Assembly (NCBI GenBank): GCA_048886185.1
Contig: JBHLKY010000006.1
Coordinates: 60,001 to 92,000 of the forward strand
Source: Candidatus Hermodarchaeota archaeon
GTDB lineage: Archaea > Asgardarchaeota > Heimdallarchaeia > Hodarchaeales > Hodarchaeaceae
DNA: 32,000 nt
Direction: 5' to 3'
Notes under the pieces: generated by a model
Told to the model about the DNA's origin: nothing
Seen by the model: the letters and a program-made list of their open reading frames with translations, nothing else
Database searches by the model: none
Part shown: positions 14,164-28,676 of the stretch, one piece after another
How positions within the stretch are numbered: position 1 is the stretch's first letter
How the letters are laid out: each line of letters begins with the position of its first letter
Position numbers and translations under genes: made by a program

Positions 14164-15141
14164 TCAAGAAGTGGGATTAGAAAACAAGGTTAACCGTTGA
14201 TGGCACATAGGGCATTGATTGAAAACTTTTAACCACTCTAGTAAGTGATTTCGGTGAAAGGAGTTTTGGCACGAAGGACATTCCACAATATCTTCATCTG
14301 GTTCAATGATGTAACGACATATTACACAATGTTTGTCATATTTTTGAGAGTTCTCCCACGATATACCTTCAACCACACTCCCCTTATAGGGACGTTCTAC
14401 TGTTAAGATCAAACTACCACGTTTATTATGATCTAAACTTCCACCAACCTCACCTTGAGATAAAATATGATCAATTATCTGTTGAAATAAATAATCATCC
14501 ACTATCTGATCTTGAATATGCTTTTGGACTTTGAAAAATAAGTAATCATACTCAATTTCGTTCCGAGGCCGAGAAAGTTGTATATTGATAGTGGTTAAAA
14601 TCCTCTGTCGTATTTCAGCTAAAAATATAATATTGGCACGCTTTTTTCTTATTTCTTTTTTAGCTTCATCTAATGATTTGATAATTTCTTTTAACTCCCT
14701 TTGAATCCGTGAATTGTGAATAGGAGAGGAATTCATTGAGATTTCTTCTGAGGTAAGAGAATAGATACCTTCCATTTCCGAATTAAGGTCATCCACCTCT
14801 TTGAGAGCTGCTTTCAATGTAAATATCGTTTGCAGCGGTTCTATCATTATAGCACGAACTGCTGCCTGTTGTACATCAAATCGCCGATTAACTAGCTCCT
14901 CTAAATACCGCGAGGTTTCTATAAAAAAAGGTTGACGCATTTTTTTATTTACAAAGTATGAAATTAAGACACTTACCCCGAATCCTCCCAAAAATGCAAA
15001 TTTATCGGTATTAGACGACACTCCAGCCCCAATAGCTCCTACGAAAAGGATTCCTCCAATACAAGTCAGTACAAAGATGATTACATTCCCAGATGTCTTG
15101 TTTCGAGACAATCGAGAGAGCTTTGTGACACTTGTAGCCAT
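14164..15141 (-). CDS. Membrane-anchored RING-like zinc-finger protein (putative E3 ligase-like)
   Basis: Two N-terminal TM segments, a coiled coil, and C-terminal C-x2-C-x12-C-x2-C-x4-H-x2-H-x3-W-x6-C-x2-C. Confidence 0.85.
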   Translation of the reverse strand: MATSVTKLSRLSRNKTSGNVIIFVLTCIGGILFVGAIGAGVSSNTDKFAFLGGFGVSVLISYFVNKKMRQPFFIETSRYLEELVNRRFDVQQAAVRAIMIEPLQTIFTLKAALKEVDDLNSEMEGIYSLTSEEISMNSSPIHNSRIQRELKEIIKSLDEAKKEIRKKRANIIFLAEIRQRILTTINIQLSRPRNEIEYDYLFFKVQKHIQDQIVDDYLFQQIIDHILSQGEVGGSLDHNKRGSLILTVERPYKGSVVEGISWENSQKYDKHCVICRYIIEPDEDIVECPSCQNSFHRNHLLEWLKVFNQCPMCHQRLTLFSNPTS

Positions 15142-16340: not shown

Positions 16341-17081
16341 ATGGTTCGTCTCAAAGCAGTATATTTAATCACCGAGGAAGGATTTGTTATCTATAACCAA
16401 TCGTTTGGTGTAACAGAGCAGGATCAGGACATGGTTGGCTCACTTCTTATGGCGTTGAGAAGTTTTGGCAAGGAAGCTTTAGGAGAGGGATCATTGTCTA
16501 AAGTAGACTTTGGAGAAGGAGCAGACATGATTTTGGAATCAGGTAACAGGATAATTGCGATTGCTGTGGTAATCCTCGATAAGGAACATAAAGAGAGAGA
16601 GGAATATGATATTCGTAAAGATTTATTGAAATTTGTAAGAAGAATTGAGGAAATTTACGTGGAAGAACTGGATGACCCCATCTTTCAAAAAAGTGCCTTT
16701 TCAGGGGTTGGAACCCAAATATACCAGCATTTTTTCCGTGATAAAATGTCTAGGATCCACAACAATCAATTTGCTAGTTTGAATGAGTACTTAAAATATC
16801 CAACAACCCTCCTTTTTGAGATAACTCCTAGGGGTGGAAGACTATACAATTTTTATAGAGAATTTCCTAAATTTACTGAATTAATTGGAGATATCCAGAA
16901 GGAGGATTTTGATGAATTGATAGTAGGTATGTTAGATAAAAACAGCATGGTTTCATTTAAAGACTGTCTTGATTATTTCGGTGAAGAACGAATGGATAGA
17001 ATTTTTGAAGTCTTCAAATTTCTTACAAATCGAGGTATGTTCGAGGCGTATAATTTTGAGCGCATAGCTATTGAAACATGA
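16341..17081 (+). CDS. Longin-like domain protein with probable C-terminal winged helix
   Basis: N-terminal beta-beta-alpha-beta-beta-beta-alpha-alpha pattern (AVYLITEEG..IYNQ; DMVGSLLMALRSFGKE; IIAIAVV; IRKDLLKFVRRIEEIY); C-terminal SFKDCLDYF..RIFEVFKFLTNRGMFEAY. Confidence 0.78.
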   Translation: MVRLKAVYLITEEGFVIYNQSFGVTEQDQDMVGSLLMALRSFGKEALGEGSLSKVDFGEGADMILESGNRIIAIAVVILDKEHKEREEYDIRKDLLKFVRRIEEIYVEELDDPIFQKSAFSGVGTQIYQHFFRDKMSRIHNNQFASLNEYLKYPTTLLFEITPRGGRLYNFYREFPKFTELIGDIQKEDFDELIVGMLDKNSMVSFKDCLDYFGEERMDRIFEVFKFLTNRGMFEAYNFERIAIET

Positions 17082-17124: not shown

Positions 17125-17976
17125 TTAGGGTTCTTTTCGTTGTGTGCGTACAATAAATGCAGTCATCTTTTTCATTTCTTTTTGCATTGACGTAAGTTCA
17201 GCAATAACTCGCTGTTCAACTGCAGTGTTAATCTGTTGATTCATTATCTCTGGGAGGGAGCTAATACTCTGAGTTAATTGACCTGTTGCTTTAACTAATC
17301 TTTGAAGAGTTCCATCTTGTGAAGCTAATTTTTCAGTTACAGATGTTTTTAGCTCGTTGACTGATGCTTCCAAGTAAATAACAATACGGTCACGCAGCGA
17401 AGCCAATTCTACTTGGATTATTGCATTCACACGATCCCGAAGTTCAGCAACAGTAGCTAGCTGATCAGTTTGATTTTCTATTAATGCATTTAAATTACTT
17501 TCAATATTGTCAAGCTTATCTGAAATCACTACAAAATTAGCGGTACTGGCTTCGAATCGGCCTTTTGTTTCCTCGGTAGATGATTCTATCATTCCTGTAA
17601 TATCATTAGATAGTGTTCGCATACTCCCAACAACATCTTCAACATAGCTGACTTTGATAAACTTCAGATCATTCTTTGTTTCTTCAGCTGTGGTCACAAA
17701 AGTCTTTTGGAACGATCCAATGGATTCTTCAAGATTTGTAATGATCAGAGGAAGGTTTTGAATTGAAGTTTGTAATTCTGAACTAATTTTCGAAGCATCT
17801 ACTATTTGTTGGATTGCTGACAACCTTTCCTCAAGATTACTTAATACTAGAAAAGTATTTTGTACTGATGATTGAACCTCTGCCATTATTTTGGAGGGAT
17901 CTGCCACTCTCTGGAGCGATTGCTTTATTTCCAGAACTTGATCCTTAATGTTTTTAATGTCATCTTCTAAGCCCAT
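17125..17976 (-). CDS. Coiled-coil/apolipoprotein-like helical protein with internal 34-aa duplication
   Basis: Continuous amphipathic heptad pattern, no TM; aa 26-59 versus 60-93 share 15/34 identities; GTGAGG RBS. Confidence 0.8.
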   Translation of the reverse strand: MGLEDDIKNIKDQVLEIKQSLQRVADPSKIMAEVQSSVQNTFLVLSNLEERLSAIQQIVDASKISSELQTSIQNLPLIITNLEESIGSFQKTFVTTAEETKNDLKFIKVSYVEDVVGSMRTLSNDITGMIESSTEETKGRFEASTANFVVISDKLDNIESNLNALIENQTDQLATVAELRDRVNAIIQVELASLRDRIVIYLEASVNELKTSVTEKLASQDGTLQRLVKATGQLTQSISSLPEIMNQQINTAVEQRVIAELTSMQKEMKKMTAFIVRTQRKEP

Positions 17977-18134
17977 TCTATTTCCTCACATCTTATTCTA
18001 TCATTATAGAAAAATATTGAACTCAAAAATTCTAAAAGATTTTCGAAACCTTACGACTCTGATAGCTTTTATTTCATTCTTGAAAAAAACCTAGTATGAG
18101 CTTTTGAGGTTTGTTCCAGCATTTCAGAGAATAT

Positions 18135-19217
18135 CTATTTCAAGCGTCTTAAGAAAGTTACAAACGTCTCATTTTCCAACATTGAATTATTCAACCGATT
18201 GATAAGGATGATCGTTTCTGATGAAATTACTCGCTTGATTTCATTTTCTGTGGCATTTTGCGCATCTAGATCAACTACTTTAACAACACTGTAAGAAACA
18301 TTAGGTATTCTTGATTCTAGGTCACCCGTTCCAAGATTATAGTTTTTTAGAACGCCTGAAGAGATTCGAAGAGAATCTTGTAAACTCCGATTGTTCTCTA
18401 AATACTCTGATATGTTTCTATAGTAGCTTTCCACTATCTCTTGAATTTGTTCTTGTTCGGTAGATGTGGGAGTTGAGTCGGGTTCGGAAGGAAACATTCT
18501 ACGAAGGTTTTGTAGTAGACGAGCAGCAGGAGCTTCTCGTAATAATTTTCTTATAAGAACTCTAAGAGTAAAAGCAGGAATTTTAATTATTTCGTGGTGA
18601 TTAGAGAAGTTAGTTTGGTGTTGTATCTCATAACGATGTAGTTCTTTACATGCAGCAAAGTAATAATTGGGAAAACCCAAATGAGATAAACTTGAGTATG
18701 AGGCTAATAATTTTTCAATAGACTCAATTATTCCCCATTTATCAAGATAGACCGCGTTTCGTTGAAAATGACCAATTTGTTCTGGTGTTACCTGAACTAC
18801 TTTCTTTTTTGACACAACTGTAGAAGTTGAATAACTAGAGAGATCCTCAAGTAGAGTAGTTATTTTTGAGTGAATGGCTTCACTTTTTTCTAGAATATTT
18901 AGGTCCGACTCTGGTTGCATGAGTATTTTAGAACAGAACTCCTGAATCATGACCAAAGTTGCAATCAAATCGTCAGTTAAAGGATGTTCCCTCTGTAGAA
19001 TTTGAACTAGATTTGTGCTTAGGTTAATAAGTAAAAGATTTAATCCAATTAAGAGATTAATCTTTTCGCCCATGTTCCCCCGTGATGTCCAAAAGTCCAG
19101 TGAAGGGTATTGAGGTTTCTCAGTCTCAGGTTTGGGTTTGATTTTATCTTCTTCAGATTGTAATAAATCCTGGCTTTTATTAATATTTTCAAATCCTGAA
19201 GGCTCTTTTTCGTCCAC
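18135..19217 (-). CDS. Hypothetical protein directly downstream of the tubulin-like gene
   Basis: 360-aa ORF, GTG start 20 bp after the tubulin-like stop; disordered N-terminus then helical; no motif recognised. Confidence 0.75.
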   Translation of the reverse strand: MDEKEPSGFENINKSQDLLQSEEDKIKPKPETEKPQYPSLDFWTSRGNMGEKINLLIGLNLLLINLSTNLVQILQREHPLTDDLIATLVMIQEFCSKILMQPESDLNILEKSEAIHSKITTLLEDLSSYSTSTVVSKKKVVQVTPEQIGHFQRNAVYLDKWGIIESIEKLLASYSSLSHLGFPNYYFAACKELHRYEIQHQTNFSNHHEIIKIPAFTLRVLIRKLLREAPAARLLQNLRRMFPSEPDSTPTSTEQEQIQEIVESYYRNISEYLENNRSLQDSLRISSGVLKNYNLGTGDLESRIPNVSYSVVKVVDLDAQNATENEIKRVISSETIILINRLNNSMLENETFVTFLRRLK

Positions 19218-19237: not shown

Positions 19238-20602
19238 TTATTCTGGTTTAATGTAATAACCAAATAATTTTTCCAAATCGTTTACTGCAGCGTCCAATTC
19301 TTTCCGTGTGGTTCCTTTTGATCGTTTAAACCAATGCTGCTTCAATTCCGAGTCTCCACTGTGAAGATTTATGAGAGCTTTAGCCTCCTCAAGAATATCA
19401 TGTAATTCTGGTATTTTTGGCAGACCAAATAATAGAAGAAGTGAGGCACGAGTGGTGTCATCGTCATATGCACAATAAGTTGGAGATATACTCGCACCTT
19501 TAGCTAAAAATGGTGTTAATGCTTTTTTCAAAAGGGGGTCATATTCTACTCGAGCAATATTACGAGGGCCGCTGAGAACAGAGAAAACAGATGACGCTGA
19601 AGGGTTCGTACCCATGTCAGTTAAGCTACAATTGGAAAGAGTGTATTCAACTGCTGTTGAAAATTGAGAGTCCATCCCACCTATTTCAGGGAAGACAGAT
19701 AAATCGTCAAACATTGCAGGTACAACAACACTATCTAATTTTAATGCAAAATCACCAATATCAGTCGTTGGCAGAACTTCTTTTCCTAACTCAGGTACGC
19801 CAGGAGACAACATTTCAGCAATAGATTCTAAAGCTAAAGGGTTAACCAGTTCGACAAATGCCTCCTCCATCTGAGTAGGATATGCTGTGCCATCTTGGCC
19901 AATAATACTTGGAATATTTGGGCCAATCTGTTCACTGCTCAAATCAGCTAGATCTTTTCCTATTTGTCTACTTAATAAATCAACAGATTCCCCGCGTTGC
20001 CAATTTAAAACCCTTTGAAGCATTGTTCTATTAGAAAGAAGAAGAATAAGATCAGGTCCCATATTTCCTTCCTCAAGCTGAAGTCGAAGCAATTTAGATA
20101 GTGCCCAGACGCTGTTTACGGCTTCTGATGACTGGTTAACGAAAGGTAATACCCCAAAGACATAGATGAATATTTTACGTTTTTCTTCCTCCGCAAATCT
20201 CTTTCTTAAAAGACGTATTAAAGCTGGAGTACCTCCACAACCAGTTCCTCCTCCAAAACTAGTGAAAATGCAAAATCCACTGATTCCCTCGTAACCTAGT
20301 CCCTGTAATTGATTTAAAATAATATCCTGGGAATTCATAACAGCATCGTAACCTGAGGAAAATTTTCCACCAACTCCAATCTCTGCGTCTGAATATAGAA
20401 GTGTTCTCTTTTTCGATATGGAATATTTCTTTCGTGCTTTCAATAAGTCACCACGATCGGTATTCAACACTAAGTATTCTCTAATACGTTGGGGTAACTC
20501 TCCTCTCTTGGATCGTGCCAAGTAACTACCCACAAGATTGCTACCGCATTCGCCAATACCGATCGCAAATATCTCAGATTCAGACTCGCCTTCAATTGAC
20601 AT
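19238..20602 (-). CDS. Tubulin/FtsZ-superfamily GTPase (CetZ/tubulin-like)
   Basis: T1 GIGECGSNL, T2 LNTD, T3 GVGGKFSSG, T4 signature SFGGGTGCGG, VLPF, LSN, T7-like TTDIGDF, C-terminal LLLFGLPKIPEL helices. Confidence 0.92.
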   Translation of the reverse strand: MSIEGESESEIFAIGIGECGSNLVGSYLARSKRGELPQRIREYLVLNTDRGDLLKARKKYSISKKRTLLYSDAEIGVGGKFSSGYDAVMNSQDIILNQLQGLGYEGISGFCIFTSFGGGTGCGGTPALIRLLRKRFAEEEKRKIFIYVFGVLPFVNQSSEAVNSVWALSKLLRLQLEEGNMGPDLILLLSNRTMLQRVLNWQRGESVDLLSRQIGKDLADLSSEQIGPNIPSIIGQDGTAYPTQMEEAFVELVNPLALESIAEMLSPGVPELGKEVLPTTDIGDFALKLDSVVVPAMFDDLSVFPEIGGMDSQFSTAVEYTLSNCSLTDMGTNPSASSVFSVLSGPRNIARVEYDPLLKKALTPFLAKGASISPTYCAYDDDTTRASLLLLFGLPKIPELHDILEEAKALINLHSGDSELKQHWFKRSKGTTRKELDAAVNDLEKLFGYYIKPE

Positions 20603-20642: not shown

Positions 20643-23600
20643 TCAATTCTCCAGTTGGATTCCAGATTTAATTTCTATTAGTAATTTCATTACTAGGCTC
20701 AGATATGAACGAATTACCTTATTATGAGGATAAGTTTCCTTGATTTTCTTTGAAATTTCCTTATACTGTCGTGAGTTTTCCTCAACACTATCTGTCGGAG
20801 TGTATCGAGAACGAAACATACGAATAGCGCGATGCCAATGGTTCAACTGTATAGATACTTTTTTCCATTCTTCTCTTTGTTTATCTATCTTTGGTAATAA
20901 TTCTAATATATATCTGAGATCATGAGAGTCGAGAAACTCTTCTCGTGCTTTTACTAAAGTTGATAAGGGAAAAATACTCTTCGAAGCTTCCTTTGTATAT
21001 CTCTTGAAGACTTCTTGAATATTCGAATAATATTCTAAACCTCCCAACTCTGTTTGCAACGCAGCATTTCTATCCTTTTCGATTTTCTTCATGATTTCAA
21101 TTACTGTTCCTCGAACCGAGACTAGTTCAAGAATCGCTTGTGTTAGCCTGCTAATATGATTAACAGTCGCAGTCTCCTGAAATCGGCTTAAATATGCAAG
21201 ATCCACGTGTTCATCCTGACGTAAATCAATTTGATAGTGATTGAATAGATATTCAACTGTATCCTGGATCTCTGTAATGTATCTTTTTCCCATAGACCTG
21301 ATTTCACGGCAAGCATTTGAATCGGTCTGTAAGCGATCAATTTCTACAAAGACATCTGTTATTTCCCGTAACTCAACATTTTCTTGATTCTTAACAATAA
21401 TTTGACTGAAATTTTCGATGTATCCCCCGACATACTCGATGATGTTTATCCCGACTTCTTTTAAATCATTAACATTTTTCAAAACCCTTCGTGATTCCTG
21501 TACACCATGGGTCAGTAGGATAGCTACGATTTCAGTATCATACATGTAAATGAGCTGATGTAATTTGTGAGCTAATCTCTCATGAGATGCTTCTTCAGCT
21601 TCAAAGTCTGCAATCTTCTTCTCTGCAGCAAATACAGGATCATTGATTGGTGTTATTTCATTTATTCTAGGAAGGCTAACTCTTAACCAATTATAGAGGT
21701 TTTGATGCAGCTTAGCTAGTGAATCTTTCGCCATCTGTAAACTTTCCAAGCTATAACTCTCATAAACGTTGACTAAACGAACAATATCTTTGTGTGTTTT
21801 AATTTCAATCATTTTTTCTTCCATAAGTTTCAGAGTTTCGTTAAAAAAAGTTGCATACTGACTAGGAAGTTTCGAATAGTCTTCTATATGAGAGGAAATT
21901 TCCCGTTCCATCTGTTCAGCCAAGGTGGAAGATTTCCGCTCAATAAAAGCTTGTAATTGCCAATATTCTGTTAAAGCTTCAGAATAATCAAGATCACTAA
22001 TTTCCTTTTCAGTGGAATAAATTAGGCTGCTCTTACGAGATTTTAATAATCGAAAGAGTCTCCTATCGACCCCCTCCAGATTAGCAATTTGTTTCTTCAG
22101 TTCAATAAGAATTTCATTTTTATTTTCTTCAATTTTTTCTAGGAAAGATATGTATTCTTTAATTACAGCTTCAATATTTCCAGATTCTGAGTATTCGTCA
22201 ATTAAAGTGATAGTTTGGTTACGTTTTTCCCTTAGGTCAAATCGTGTCTCTATAGGGATCAAAGGAAATGGAATTGATTTTAAATTTTCACGGATCCGTG
22301 AAGATATTTTGTACTTCCAGATAGGGATCTTTTCGTATTCATCTAAAAACTCTTGAATACTTTTCTGTGATGCTACGCTGATTTCCTCTCTGAAAGTTTT
22401 AATATCATCCAGTGTGAGAATGGGGACATGGGTTTTTAATTTTGGCGGAATCGTCTCTAGATTAGTTAGTTGATTATAAATTGGATGTATTTCTGTATCT
22501 ATTTTGTTCCAAAGTTCAGTCTTAATGTTTGTATTTAGGCGATGAAGTCTTTCTATCTCATGAACTAAATCTCGAATATCTATCTCTTCTACAATTTTAT
22601 GCTTTCTCTGATATTCGATCTGATCTTTCAGGTCATCAGATAGAATATCACGCAAACTTTCACGCGAATCAAAGAGATTTAGCAAATTTTGTCTAAGGCT
22701 TTGTTGAGCTGGCTTAGAGAAATATGCAACCAGACGGGTTTCCCAATCTTTTATTTCTCGAGCTTTGTTACTTAATTCACTAGGAGATAAGGCTTCAAAA
22801 TCACGAATGATTGGGATTTTTGGGCCCTCACTAAGATTTATGACTTCTTGTATGTGAGGATTTTCCAATAATCTGTAGAAATAGTTCTGACATTCTTCAG
22901 CGAGTGATGATTTCAACCCATGATATCTTTTTGCTATTTCTACCCACTCCTGAAGTTCTCTTGTTTCTGAGGCTTTTTTTTCAATCAAACGTACTTCTTT
23001 CTCAAAATTAGGGGGAACTGATATCTTCATTGCCTGAATGGATTTAGAAGCGTTGATTAATTCGGATGTACTGATTATCTTCTTTGTTGCAATGATTTGT
23101 TGCTGACGCCAAGAACGGATTTTCTCAATATCTTGAATAATAGTTGGAATACTTGTCGATGAAACATCAGTTTCAGGAGCTGCTGAATAAGAAGACTCTA
23201 GCTCTACTTTTCCAACAATCTGTATAATTCGTCCGATTTGGTCTTCAGTTTCTGTTTTTAGTGATATTTCGTATGTCCTGAGAGCATTTACGAATTCATT
23301 AGTAAGACTATTCAGTTTCTTTTCTAAACTAATGAGATTTTCAACCGATGTGGTTTTATCCGCACTAACTTGAATTTCTTGTACATCTTCTTTCAAAACA
23401 TCAATTTTTCTCCAAAGATCTAATCCTATTGATGCTACGGTATCAATGTGTTGTTGTAGCTCGGAAGACATTTGAATTATTGCCAGTTGGATTTTTCCTT
23501 CAGTTCCCTTCCGTCGTTGCTTCAAATATGCATTTTCAGCTTCTAACTGACTATATACTTCAAGTAAATCCGTGATCGTCATGACATGTATACTGGTTTT

Positions 23601-24170
23601 TGTTGTTTGATTTGTTACTCGAATCTTTTCTTCATCAAAATTCACAAATTTACCATAAAGCTCTATAATCTCACGATTAAATAACAAAATCGAAACGCTT
23701 TTCCCTCGTAAGACCTCAGAAGTCCGACTATATGTTCTAAGAACATCTGAACTAAATTTTACGATCTCATTGACATTAAAACTAGGAATTTGCAGCTTAC
23801 GAATGGTTTCTGTTTCTTGGGGGATAAATTTAGCAATCTCTTTGATATTATTTGCTAGGTCAAAGTAGATCTTGCGAAAACCAACCAGAAGAGAGTTTAA
23901 CAACTCATCAGTTAGTTTATTATATCTTTCTTTATTCTGCGTAAGAGCTTTCTTGATTCCTCTTTTTTTCAGGAATCCTGCTGTTGGTAAGTCTTTTTCT
24001 AACTTTTCAATTTCACCTATTACTTTTTGTGCTTCATTTAATGCAGGAATAACTTGCACAGTCGGGTCAACTGATCGTAATTCAGTCACCAATTCTCTAA
24101 TCTTGTGTAGAACTTCCTTTGAAACGAGAAGTTCTCTCGAACTCGATTCCGAGGTCATATTAGCTAGCAT
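20643..24170 (-). CDS. 1175-aa all-alpha helical-repeat (rod-like) protein
   Basis: No TM or nucleotide-binding motif; recurring N-cap plus amphipathic helix motif about every 68 aa; stop lies 40 bp before the tubulin-like start. Confidence 0.88.
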   Translation of the reverse strand: MLANMTSESSSRELLVSKEVLHKIRELVTELRSVDPTVQVIPALNEAQKVIGEIEKLEKDLPTAGFLKKRGIKKALTQNKERYNKLTDELLNSLLVGFRKIYFDLANNIKEIAKFIPQETETIRKLQIPSFNVNEIVKFSSDVLRTYSRTSEVLRGKSVSILLFNREIIELYGKFVNFDEEKIRVTNQTTKTSIHVMTITDLLEVYSQLEAENAYLKQRRKGTEGKIQLAIIQMSSELQQHIDTVASIGLDLWRKIDVLKEDVQEIQVSADKTTSVENLISLEKKLNSLTNEFVNALRTYEISLKTETEDQIGRIIQIVGKVELESSYSAAPETDVSSTSIPTIIQDIEKIRSWRQQQIIATKKIISTSELINASKSIQAMKISVPPNFEKEVRLIEKKASETRELQEWVEIAKRYHGLKSSLAEECQNYFYRLLENPHIQEVINLSEGPKIPIIRDFEALSPSELSNKAREIKDWETRLVAYFSKPAQQSLRQNLLNLFDSRESLRDILSDDLKDQIEYQRKHKIVEEIDIRDLVHEIERLHRLNTNIKTELWNKIDTEIHPIYNQLTNLETIPPKLKTHVPILTLDDIKTFREEISVASQKSIQEFLDEYEKIPIWKYKISSRIRENLKSIPFPLIPIETRFDLREKRNQTITLIDEYSESGNIEAVIKEYISFLEKIEENKNEILIELKKQIANLEGVDRRLFRLLKSRKSSLIYSTEKEISDLDYSEALTEYWQLQAFIERKSSTLAEQMEREISSHIEDYSKLPSQYATFFNETLKLMEEKMIEIKTHKDIVRLVNVYESYSLESLQMAKDSLAKLHQNLYNWLRVSLPRINEITPINDPVFAAEKKIADFEAEEASHERLAHKLHQLIYMYDTEIVAILLTHGVQESRRVLKNVNDLKEVGINIIEYVGGYIENFSQIIVKNQENVELREITDVFVEIDRLQTDSNACREIRSMGKRYITEIQDTVEYLFNHYQIDLRQDEHVDLAYLSRFQETATVNHISRLTQAILELVSVRGTVIEIMKKIEKDRNAALQTELGGLEYYSNIQEVFKRYTKEASKSIFPLSTLVKAREEFLDSHDLRYILELLPKIDKQREEWKKVSIQLNHWHRAIRMFRSRYTPTDSVEENSRQYKEISKKIKETYPHNKVIRSYLSLVMKLLIEIKSGIQLEN

Positions 24171-27719: not shown

Positions 27720-28676
27720 TCAGTCTTCATTAGCTTCAGATGACCGAGTTGGTTTATAAATGTCCAAAGGCCATTGCTTTTTCATTAATTTTAAAAGCAC
27801 TCGCGAATCAAACTGTTCAATCTCAATTGATGCCGAAGCTGTTTTCATTAATCTTTCAGCAATTAGTTTAGCTCGTACAACAGAATCAGAATACCCAATT
27901 ATAAGGCCAATTACTAAAGGATGGTTCTTTACAATAACTAGTTGAAGATCGGAAGCTGTAATAACTTCCATTCCAGCTGGATTCAGAGAAAGTTCTTTTA
28001 CTGTTTCACTTATCCCCATATTAAGCTGATCTAAGATTTCCTTTGCAATATTAGTAAATTTTGTCGTGTATATCTGGTGTGACTCCAGATCTATCAGAAT
28101 CGCCACTCGTACTTTACTCTTAAATGTAGATTCTTCTCCTACGAGAACATCAGCTATCCAATCAAAAGCATCATAGAAATTTTCTCCCGTTTTTGCGGAG
28201 ATACGAAAAAGACCTACTGGTCTAGCAGATCTTTGCGCACGTGTCAGATCGAGATCTTGGATTATCAGGTCAAATGCTCGAGCCCCAGGCAAGTCTATTT
28301 TGTTTGCGATAAAGAGGACAGGAACTTTCTCATTTCGCTGAATTGAATCCCAAAAAGCCGTGGACGCTTCTGAAAGACGGAGATCAGCACTATCAAGAAC
28401 GAAAACGATCGCTGAAGCTTTTTCTATAGAATCATACCAAAGAAGGTTACGATAAATCTCTTGTCCCCCAAGATCTACTAAATTGAACTCAATTTGACGA
28501 TATTTTACAGTTCGGTAGTTCACACCTAAAGTTCGTGTTGTAGGCACAAATTCTGATCTTAATAATCGATTGACAATCGTTGTTTTTCCAGCACCGTCGA
28601 GACCGATAATAGTAATTTCGTATTTATCGGCTTTTTTTCCTTTGAAAATTCTTCGTAATATACTCGACACTGACAT
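27720..28676 (-). CDS. Arf-type small GTPase fused to a C-terminal longin/roadblock-like domain
   Basis: N-terminal amphipathic helix MSVSSILRRIF, G1 GLDGAGKTT, G2 TLG, G3 DLGGQ, G4 NKID, G5 SAK; extra ~130 aa with a beta-beta-alpha-beta-beta-beta-alpha-alpha pattern. Confidence 0.92.
   Translation of the reverse strand: MSVSSILRRIFKGKKADKYEITIIGLDGAGKTTIVNRLLRSEFVPTTRTLGVNYRTVKYRQIEFNLVDLGGQEIYRNLLWYDSIEKASAIVFVLDSADLRLSEASTAFWDSIQRNEKVPVLFIANKIDLPGARAFDLIIQDLDLTRAQRSARPVGLFRISAKTGENFYDAFDWIADVLVGEESTFKSKVRVAILIDLESHQIYTTKFTNIAKEILDQLNMGISETVKELSLNPAGMEVITASDLQLVIVKNHPLVIGLIIGYSDSVVRAKLIAERLMKTASASIEIEQFDSRVLLKLMKKQWPLDIYKPTRSSEANED

Follow-up and report, generated by a model that had tools for sequence, protein, structure and literature searches.

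A CetZ-related protein of the Asgard tubulin superfamily is encoded in a conserved cassette with two helical partner proteins

The locus analysed here raises the question of what kind of tubulin-superfamily protein an Asgard archaeon can encode beside its FtsZ, and with which partners. It lies in a stretch of 32,000 nucleotides from Candidatus Hermodarchaeota archaeon (assembly GCA_048886185.1, contig JBHLKY010000006.1, positions 60,001 to 92,000), which we call the window, and the gene in question, P0001, is read from its reverse strand. We found that P0001 is a member of Asg.Tub, an Asgard CetZ-like group that is already published and uncharacterised, and that the genes of this group stand in a fixed cassette between two partner genes, named here BIG and D360, the three showing matching phyletic patterns. 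This cassette is the main new point; beyond the published description (PMC9871819) we also add a larger membership, an insert recognised as a family trait and a duplication that took in both BIG and Asg.Tub. The best explanation, to which we give a probability of roughly 0.72, is that Asg.Tub is an Asgard-specific CetZ-related branch, a GTP-dependent filament protein encoded in a fixed operon with two dedicated partners.

Regarding the identity of the family, Asg.Tub was described by Santana-Molina, del Saz-Navarro and Devos in 2023 as a CetZ-like group found in Heimdallarchaeia and Thorarchaeales, whose position was unstable between CetZ and tubulins, whose C-terminus matched no other family (the CetZ_C model of that work gives no match to it) and whose neighbours were coiled-coil genes of unknown kind (PMC9871819). 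The same group, there named as an Asgard clade related to CetZ, serves as outgroup in work of 2026 (PMC13394414; bioRxiv 10.64898/2026.02.15.705738). The published C-terminal alignment (Supplement 35 of PMC9871819) holds OLS26264.1, PWI48967.1, KXH77455.1 and OLS30664.1, from Heimdallarchaeia LC-3 and B3-JM-08 and two Thorarchaeales, and they show the same motifs as P0001. The B3-JM-08 sequence is near-identical to P0001 over residues ~247-454, the LC-3 record is P0084 among the homologues of P0001, and at the protein level there is no difference between the published group and P0001. An earlier reading of the window, made from the letters alone (the sequence-only reading), had proposed a clade distinct from FtsZ; with the assignment to the published group this clade is not a new one. 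No function for Asg.Tub was found in the papers searched.

Searched against 5.8 billion proteins, P0001 has more than 150 homologues, which measure 440-467 aa and share 52-94% identity with it; all the named ones came from Asgard metagenome-assembled genomes (Hodarchaeales, Heimdallarchaeota, Thorarchaeota, Hermodarchaeota and Promethearchaeota). Furthermore, in a profile search against 1.84 billion representatives clustered at 50% identity, two full-length representatives were followed by a drop of the bit score from 611 to 167, with no further full-length relative among them; therefore, the family is sharply bounded. Among 400 Asgard genomes it was found in 126. The nearest outgroup, P0127 (457 aa), shares 29% identity over the first ~300 residues and retains GIGEGGGN, GGTGCGG, LLSN, VNP and D..D, being ~30 residues shorter in the connection between helices H6 and H7. 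Its locus (L025:8001-10149, Logan SRR7811641) follows SMC-ScpA and pyrimidine-synthesis genes and has no BIG upstream. An overlapping open reading frame (ORF) of 262 aa comes after P0127 and has a faint D360-like "F.W....L" motif; its hhalign probability as a D360 homologue was just 21% and we did not count it.

For gene order we compared 20 loci, 19 of them orthologous, which represent at least 8 groups of family level. In all 19 the order is BIG, Asg.Tub, D360 on one strand, with short gaps (up to about 40 nt) or overlaps between the genes, and BIG adjoins Asg.Tub on the same strand in 20/20. Across the loci BIG measures 873-1185 aa, apart from a 287-aa piece in one of them (L021), and D360 measures 293-366 aa. 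The phyletic counts in the same 400 genomes are nearly equal (Asg.Tub 126, D360 123, BIG 129), and the three genes share one set of families (f1, f2, f8, f10, f11, f12, f28, f30, f31 and neighbours), being absent elsewhere, for instance in one family of the same class (0/31) and in the largest family (0/135). Asg.Tub and D360 occur together in 121 genomes; the 7 mismatches all fall in assemblies that are 67-86% complete. In the window a run of seven T follows D360 (Table 1). Since oligo-T acts as a terminator in archaea, this run is likely to mark the end of the transcription unit. The next gene on the same strand, D283 (P0004, 283 aa, 17125-17976), was considered as a further operon member and rejected, because it is found only in this genus, comes after the T-run, with a TATA-like box of its own. 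The D283 protein has internally repeated helical segments, and its only matches are weak ones of the Baculo_PEP_C type.

The genome of P0001 holds a second module of the two genes on another contig (C10, L004:9559-14330, forward strand), where the Asg.Tub paralogue P0105 (444 aa, 55% identity) begins 11 nt after the end of a BIG paralogue of 1141 aa (23% identity over the full length, E 9e-68). A complete genome of this genus (L017, G067) has the same module, and we conclude from these sequences that BIG and Asg.Tub have been duplicated together in the genus. No D360 is present at the second module. P0105 has the shortest insert loop in the family, with 17 residues. The module lies downstream of a 2470-aa ORF (L004:19-7431), and between them are ORFs of 266 and 311 aa, neither of them related to D283 or D360.

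Neither partner matched anything in Pfam, NCBIfam or PDB profiles, the PDB profile search of BIG giving just weak generic helical matches (E >= 0.05). In the ESM Atlas the sole match of BIG was its own Thorarchaeota cluster. The similarity of BIG across lineages is strongest in the C-terminal half (~650-1165), which includes an invariant W1112-H1113, and its N-terminus has a conserved "AGF.KKR" motif. D360 was modelled with moderate confidence as a helical bundle at the N-terminus (40-136) and with high confidence as an all-alpha domain at the C-terminus (150-360), the latter with a predicted local distance difference test score (pLDDT) above 90. It had no Foldseek match at E <= 0.001 and no lead in the ESM Atlas, and a wide structure comparison gave generic helical bundles only, over residues 41-140 and with Z <= 9.8. 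No clear transmembrane segment was seen in Asg.Tub, BIG or D360, residues 56-74 of D360 being borderline hydrophobic. The prediction of a complex between Asg.Tub and D360 scored 0.00 against a mark of 0.32, which speaks neither for nor against binding.

That P0001 belongs to the tubulin superfamily is clear from its Pfam match: residues 10-171 match PF00091 (Tubulin) with 62.7 bits, which is not chance given the gathering score of 33. We studied conservation in an alignment of 39 Asg.Tub sequences (A1, 39-94% identity to the query), in which G15, G17, E18, G20, N22, G117-G123, N191, F249, N254, D281 and D284 are invariant in 39/39. The T1 (GECGSN), T4 (GGGTGCG), T6 (LSNRT, with N191), H7 (LVNPL) and T7 (TTDIGDF) signatures listed in the sequence-only reading are all where it had put them, and the T7 loop does keep both acidic residues. 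Since the nucleotide-binding loops and these acids are invariant throughout the alignment, the GTPase competence that it had proposed can fairly be inferred. Its description of them as a hybrid is fair for the motifs: T1 is tubulin- or CetZ-like, whereas T2 (NTD, residues 47-49) and T7 are CetZ/FtsZ-like and not tubulin-like. The profile scores given below favour CetZ in both domains. The T7 of P0001 aligns residue for residue with "SVTDLGDF" of CetZ 3zid, TDxGD being the type of CetZ and FtsZ. A Cys at the same place in T4 is seen too in other non-canonical archaeal groups. In H7, F249 and N254 are candidates for base contact, a role which we presume from tubulin Y224/N228 and FtsZ F182/D187. 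It is plausible in the model that Asn254 is the equivalent of tubulin Asn228, as it stands 27 residues ahead of the T7 Asp, compared with 23 in tubulin.

Table 1. Features of the Asg.Tub operon, with positions in the window
Feature	Position	Strand	Remarks
Asg.Tub gene (P0001, 454 aa)	19238..20602	-	ATG-started open frame; predicted CetZ-related tubulin-superfamily GTPase
T1 loop GIGECGSN, residues 15-22	20537..20560	-	G15, G17, E18, G20, N22 invariant in 39
T4 signature GGGTGCG, residues 117-123	20234..20254	-	invariant in 39
Family-specific H6-H7 insert, about residues 203-246	19865..19996	-	two short low-confidence helices and a variable, mostly acidic loop
H7 base-contact candidates F249-N254 (FVELVN)	19841..19858	-	both invariant; inside modelled helix 241-268
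T7 loop TTDIGDF, residues 279-285; catalytic candidates D281, D284	19748..19768	-	both Asp invariant
C-terminal motif W424-F425...K429-G430	19313..19333	-	invariant in the alignment; ahead of the last helix
Upstream partner BIG (P0003, 1175 aa)	20643..24170	-	all-helical; ends 40 nt upstream of Asg.Tub
Downstream partner D360 (P0002, 360 aa)	18135..19217	-	helical; GTG start; begins 20 nt downstream of the Asg.Tub stop
Run of seven T	18083..18089	-	about 46 nt beyond the stop codon of D360; read from sequence

The AlphaFold2 model of Asg.Tub (pLDDT 84.2, predicted template modelling score 0.85) has the two-domain tubulin fold joined by a long H7. Three C-terminal helices (398-413, 419-429 and 433-450) follow this fold, as had been proposed, and the stretches of low confidence are limited to residues 1-6 and 220-246. 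After strand S6 the model runs through H6 (191-203), short helices at 205-214 and 218-222 (pLDDT 51-57), a disordered loop and H7 (241-268), and from this layout the extra residues belong to the H6-H7 connection. The spacing between N191 and N254 is indeed 63 residues. The insert before H7 is common to the whole group, in which the spacing is 50-69 residues across the 39 members, and it is therefore a family trait and no feature of this gene in particular. The variable loop within it has 17-36 residues and is usually acidic, and the proximal region is conserved (M194, L195, R197 and D217 are invariant in the 39 sequences and L210 nearly so). With hhalign the insert segment had no profile match to the CetZ, FtsZ or tubulin reference alignments. 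Structure prediction was able to place it in the H6-H7 connection, although most of it was modelled with pLDDT 33-57. In tubulin and FtsZ the H6-H7 region belongs to the face on the nucleotide side, which contacts the next subunit, and by analogy the insert may lie on this face in Asg.Tub. An insert of ~30-45 aa with a conserved proximal part and a flexible acidic loop would fit a docking or regulatory element and not a part of the structural core.

In order to place Asg.Tub among CetZ, FtsZ and tubulins we rely on profiles, structures and trees, which do not point the same way. Among PDB profiles the best matches are to CetZ (CetZ1 4b46 1e-13, 3zid 6e-9, 4b45 5e-8), followed by beta and gamma tubulin and OdinTubulin at 1e-6 to 1e-5. 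The hhalign comparison of A1 gave E 1.8e-31 with canonical CetZ, 5e-16 with FtsZ and 2e-14 with the Asgard tubulins that are positive for Tubulin_C, the unequal depth of the reference alignments (45, 13 and 5 rows) affecting these scores. For the N-domain the values were 1e-29, 4e-16 and 1e-14 respectively; the C-domain (247-454) matched CetZ with E 1e-5 (probability 82%, 105 columns) and tubulin with 0.0085, the latter match being confined to the last helix. By structure the order is different. The best superposition of the model is with OdinTubulin (Z 37.7, root-mean-square deviation 3.0 Å, 363 residues, spanning 7-454), beta-tubulin and BtubA superpose at Z about 36 and the tubulins as a whole at Z 36-38 over 355-365 residues, and CetZ 3zid comes at Foldseek rank 30 (template modelling scores 0.59/0.72). 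This ranking of tubulins over CetZ probably reflects the longer C-terminus. In the trees Asg.Tub is monophyletic (99; 98/99) and groups with P0127 and P0136 at 100/99, and the canonical CetZ clade, whose anchors P0149 and P0150 match CetZ1 4b46 over the full length at 1e-87 and 2e-40, excludes it at 96 and 97/96; the Thermococcales CetZs, which define the published CetZ boundary, are not labelled in this tree sample. The FtsZ (100/98) and tubulin (100/100) clades exclude it as well. Thus, a phylogeny with these groups leaves Asg.Tub outside both FtsZ and canonical CetZ, and the proposal of a clade distinct from FtsZ holds: against TIGR00065, the FtsZ equivalog model, P0001 scores 32.8 bits with a cut-off of 295.2, whereas the FtsZ of the same genome, P0125, scores 378. 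Between CetZ and tubulin the trees are undecided, which reproduces the published instability.

One alternative takes P0001 for an ordinary CetZ orthologue that controls shape or motility like CetZ1 of Haloferax, the insert being a lineage decoration. The lead of CetZ in the profile searches and the T7 of the 3zid type speak for it, and one database record names a family member "Tubulin-like protein CetZ". Nevertheless, the exclusion from the canonical clade tells against orthology, the match of P0001 itself to CetZ extends over the GTPase domain only, with E no better than 1e-13, and Asg.Tub has a C-terminus and an operon of its own; CetZ genes and those of the CetZ-like groups stand in unrelated genomic surroundings (PMC9871819). 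We regard plain orthology as quite improbable. Another alternative makes it a true tubulin that has diverged, or else the nearest sister of tubulins among prokaryotes, and lets it build tubules like OdinTubulin or AtubAB. Here the structural matches, which cover the full length including the C-terminal helices, the best maximum-likelihood tree, which puts Asg.Tub with the Tubulin_C-positive Asgard tubulins, some trees of PMC9871819 that place it between CetZ and tubulins, and a faint tubulin-like W-F...G motif ahead of the last helix all count in favour. However, the support for that grouping is 81/39 and the placement with CetZ is not rejected (AU p 0.30, see below), the N-domain profile is far closer to CetZ, and the W-F...G stretch matches tubulin H11'-H12 over ~33 columns with E 0.0026-0.0085, so that the C-terminal similarity (E 0.003-0.009) is not significant. 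The T7 consensus of tubulin is NxDxxE, and neither the TDxxD of Asg.Tub nor its T2 is of the tubulin type. Furthermore, the domain Tubulin_C (PF03953), which 8/400 Asgard genomes match, has no match in the genome of P0001 nor in any family that bears Asg.Tub, and the published analysis decides against a tubulin affiliation from indels (PMC9871819). A tubulin identity is therefore improbable in our judgement. No genome belongs both to the 8 with Tubulin_C and to the 126 with Asg.Tub, which is just a pattern to watch because the tubulin count is small and the relatives are not independent.

Many archaea have FtsZ1 and FtsZ2, and a further alternative would have Asg.Tub replace a lost second FtsZ in cell division. 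We counted FtsZ loci in Asgard genomes that are at least 90% complete. It is true that a single locus is found in the genome of P0001 and in the 10 other near-complete genomes of its genus (11/11), most other Asgard families having two. However, a single FtsZ is also the rule in related families without Asg.Tub (f4 7/7, f6 2/2), the Asg.Tub-bearing families f8, f10, f11, f28 and f31 have two FtsZ loci (40/40), and no division genes lie near the operon. The number of FtsZ loci is thus independent of the presence of Asg.Tub, which makes a replacement role in division very unlikely.

We return to the preferred explanation, that of a CetZ-related filament protein with two dedicated partners. Asg.Tub would bind GTP through its conserved T1-T6 loops and H7, and would form head-to-tail protofilaments in which D281 and D284 of one subunit complete the GTPase site of its neighbour, an arrangement known from CetZ, FtsZ and tubulin; both GTP hydrolysis and polymerisation are read here from the conserved residues. 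BIG and D360 would most plausibly serve the filament as dedicated subunits, be it as scaffold, adaptor or regulator, and may be in physical contact with Asg.Tub. The cellular role would then be in cell shape or membrane remodelling, rather than in division.

Several points weigh against this explanation. The best tree joins Asg.Tub to the tubulins (81/39), and in the approximately unbiased (AU) test joining it to CetZ instead costs 1.36 units of log-likelihood with p 0.30; given this weak backbone, the term CetZ-related rests mainly on profile scores. The paralogous module shows that D360 is not obligatory for every member of the family, and, as BIG and D360 have no recognisable domains, the roles given to them are guesses. 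The low confidence of the insert model makes the structure and position of the insert uncertain. Finally, the case is a computational one.

A bolder version of the argument would see in Asg.Tub, BIG and D360 the three components of a cytoskeletal system, as yet undescribed, that belongs to Asgard archaea of the Heimdall/Hod and Thor types, with a filament that is built, anchored or regulated by two partners of new fold. The family and its insert-less P0127-like relatives would then be the nearest prokaryotic sister of tubulins, and the C-terminal helices and the flexible acidic H6-H7 loop early equivalents of the surfaces that bind the microtubule-associated proteins of eukaryotes. We consider this whole picture speculative and on balance unlikely.

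Compared with known systems, CetZ (CetZ1 and CetZ2 of Haloferax volcanii, 4b46 and 4b45, and the Methanosaeta protein 3zid) is the closest to Asg.Tub by profile in both domains. It shares the T2 (NTD) and T7 (TDxGD) types and presumably the same GTP-dependent protofilament mechanism, whereas Asg.Tub has about 28-30 more residues between H6 and H7, is 60-90 aa longer in total and possesses an additional C-terminal helix as well as the dedicated two-partner operon. OdinTubulin and AtubA/B (7evb, 9f6t, 9hxc) have a T1 of the GxGxCGN type, a similar length and C-terminal helices like those of Asg.Tub, but identity is 15-20%, and Asg.Tub differs from them in the missing Tubulin_C as well as in T2 and T7. 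Regarding the partners, other tubulin-like GTPases are also encoded with dedicated ones, namely BtubAB with BtubC and TubZ with TubR/TubY. The haloarchaeal "Halo_adaptin" system likewise encodes a CetZ-like protein in a cassette with partners (PMC10936438). All these resemble Asg.Tub in joining a GTPase of the superfamily to lineage-specific non-enzymatic partners, while BIG and D360 have no similarity detectable with Pfam, NCBIfam or PDB profiles to BtubC, a protein of tetratricopeptide repeats, to TubR/TubY or to adaptin-like proteins.

The motifs and the insert alone are of modest value, as they are family traits of an already published group, and it is the conserved, co-duplicated cassette that adds to it. 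Asg.Tub is widespread (about a third of the sampled Asgard genomes), under strong constraint and constant in its pair of partners, and it is among the few groups that fall between CetZ and tubulin in trees, which bears on the origin of tubulin from FtsZ/CetZ-like ancestors. The cassette makes it a concrete experimental target of three proteins, and cultured Asgard strains (PMC12583498) may permit its study in cells.

The rest of the window is archaeal and Asgard-like, with an Arf-family GTPase, Cdc48, PAC2, Nre, IF-2B and a prokaryotic RING protein. The Arf-family small GTPase (27720-28676, reverse strand) matches Pfam Arf at 1e-33 over residues 5-176, and its C-terminal extension of ~140 aa has no family match. 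A 325-aa protein (14164-15141, reverse strand) ends in a prokaryotic RING finger that scores just below the Pfam cut-off, and near it lies a 246-aa protein (16341-17081, forward strand) with no Pfam match. Outside the window, another non-canonical member of the tubulin superfamily, P0139 (435 aa, T4 GGGTGCG; L026:8001-11238, GCA_027028455.1), overlaps a 648-aa gene and adjoins a ubiquitin-like system with ThiF, UQ_con, Prok-JAB, YukD and Prok-RING.

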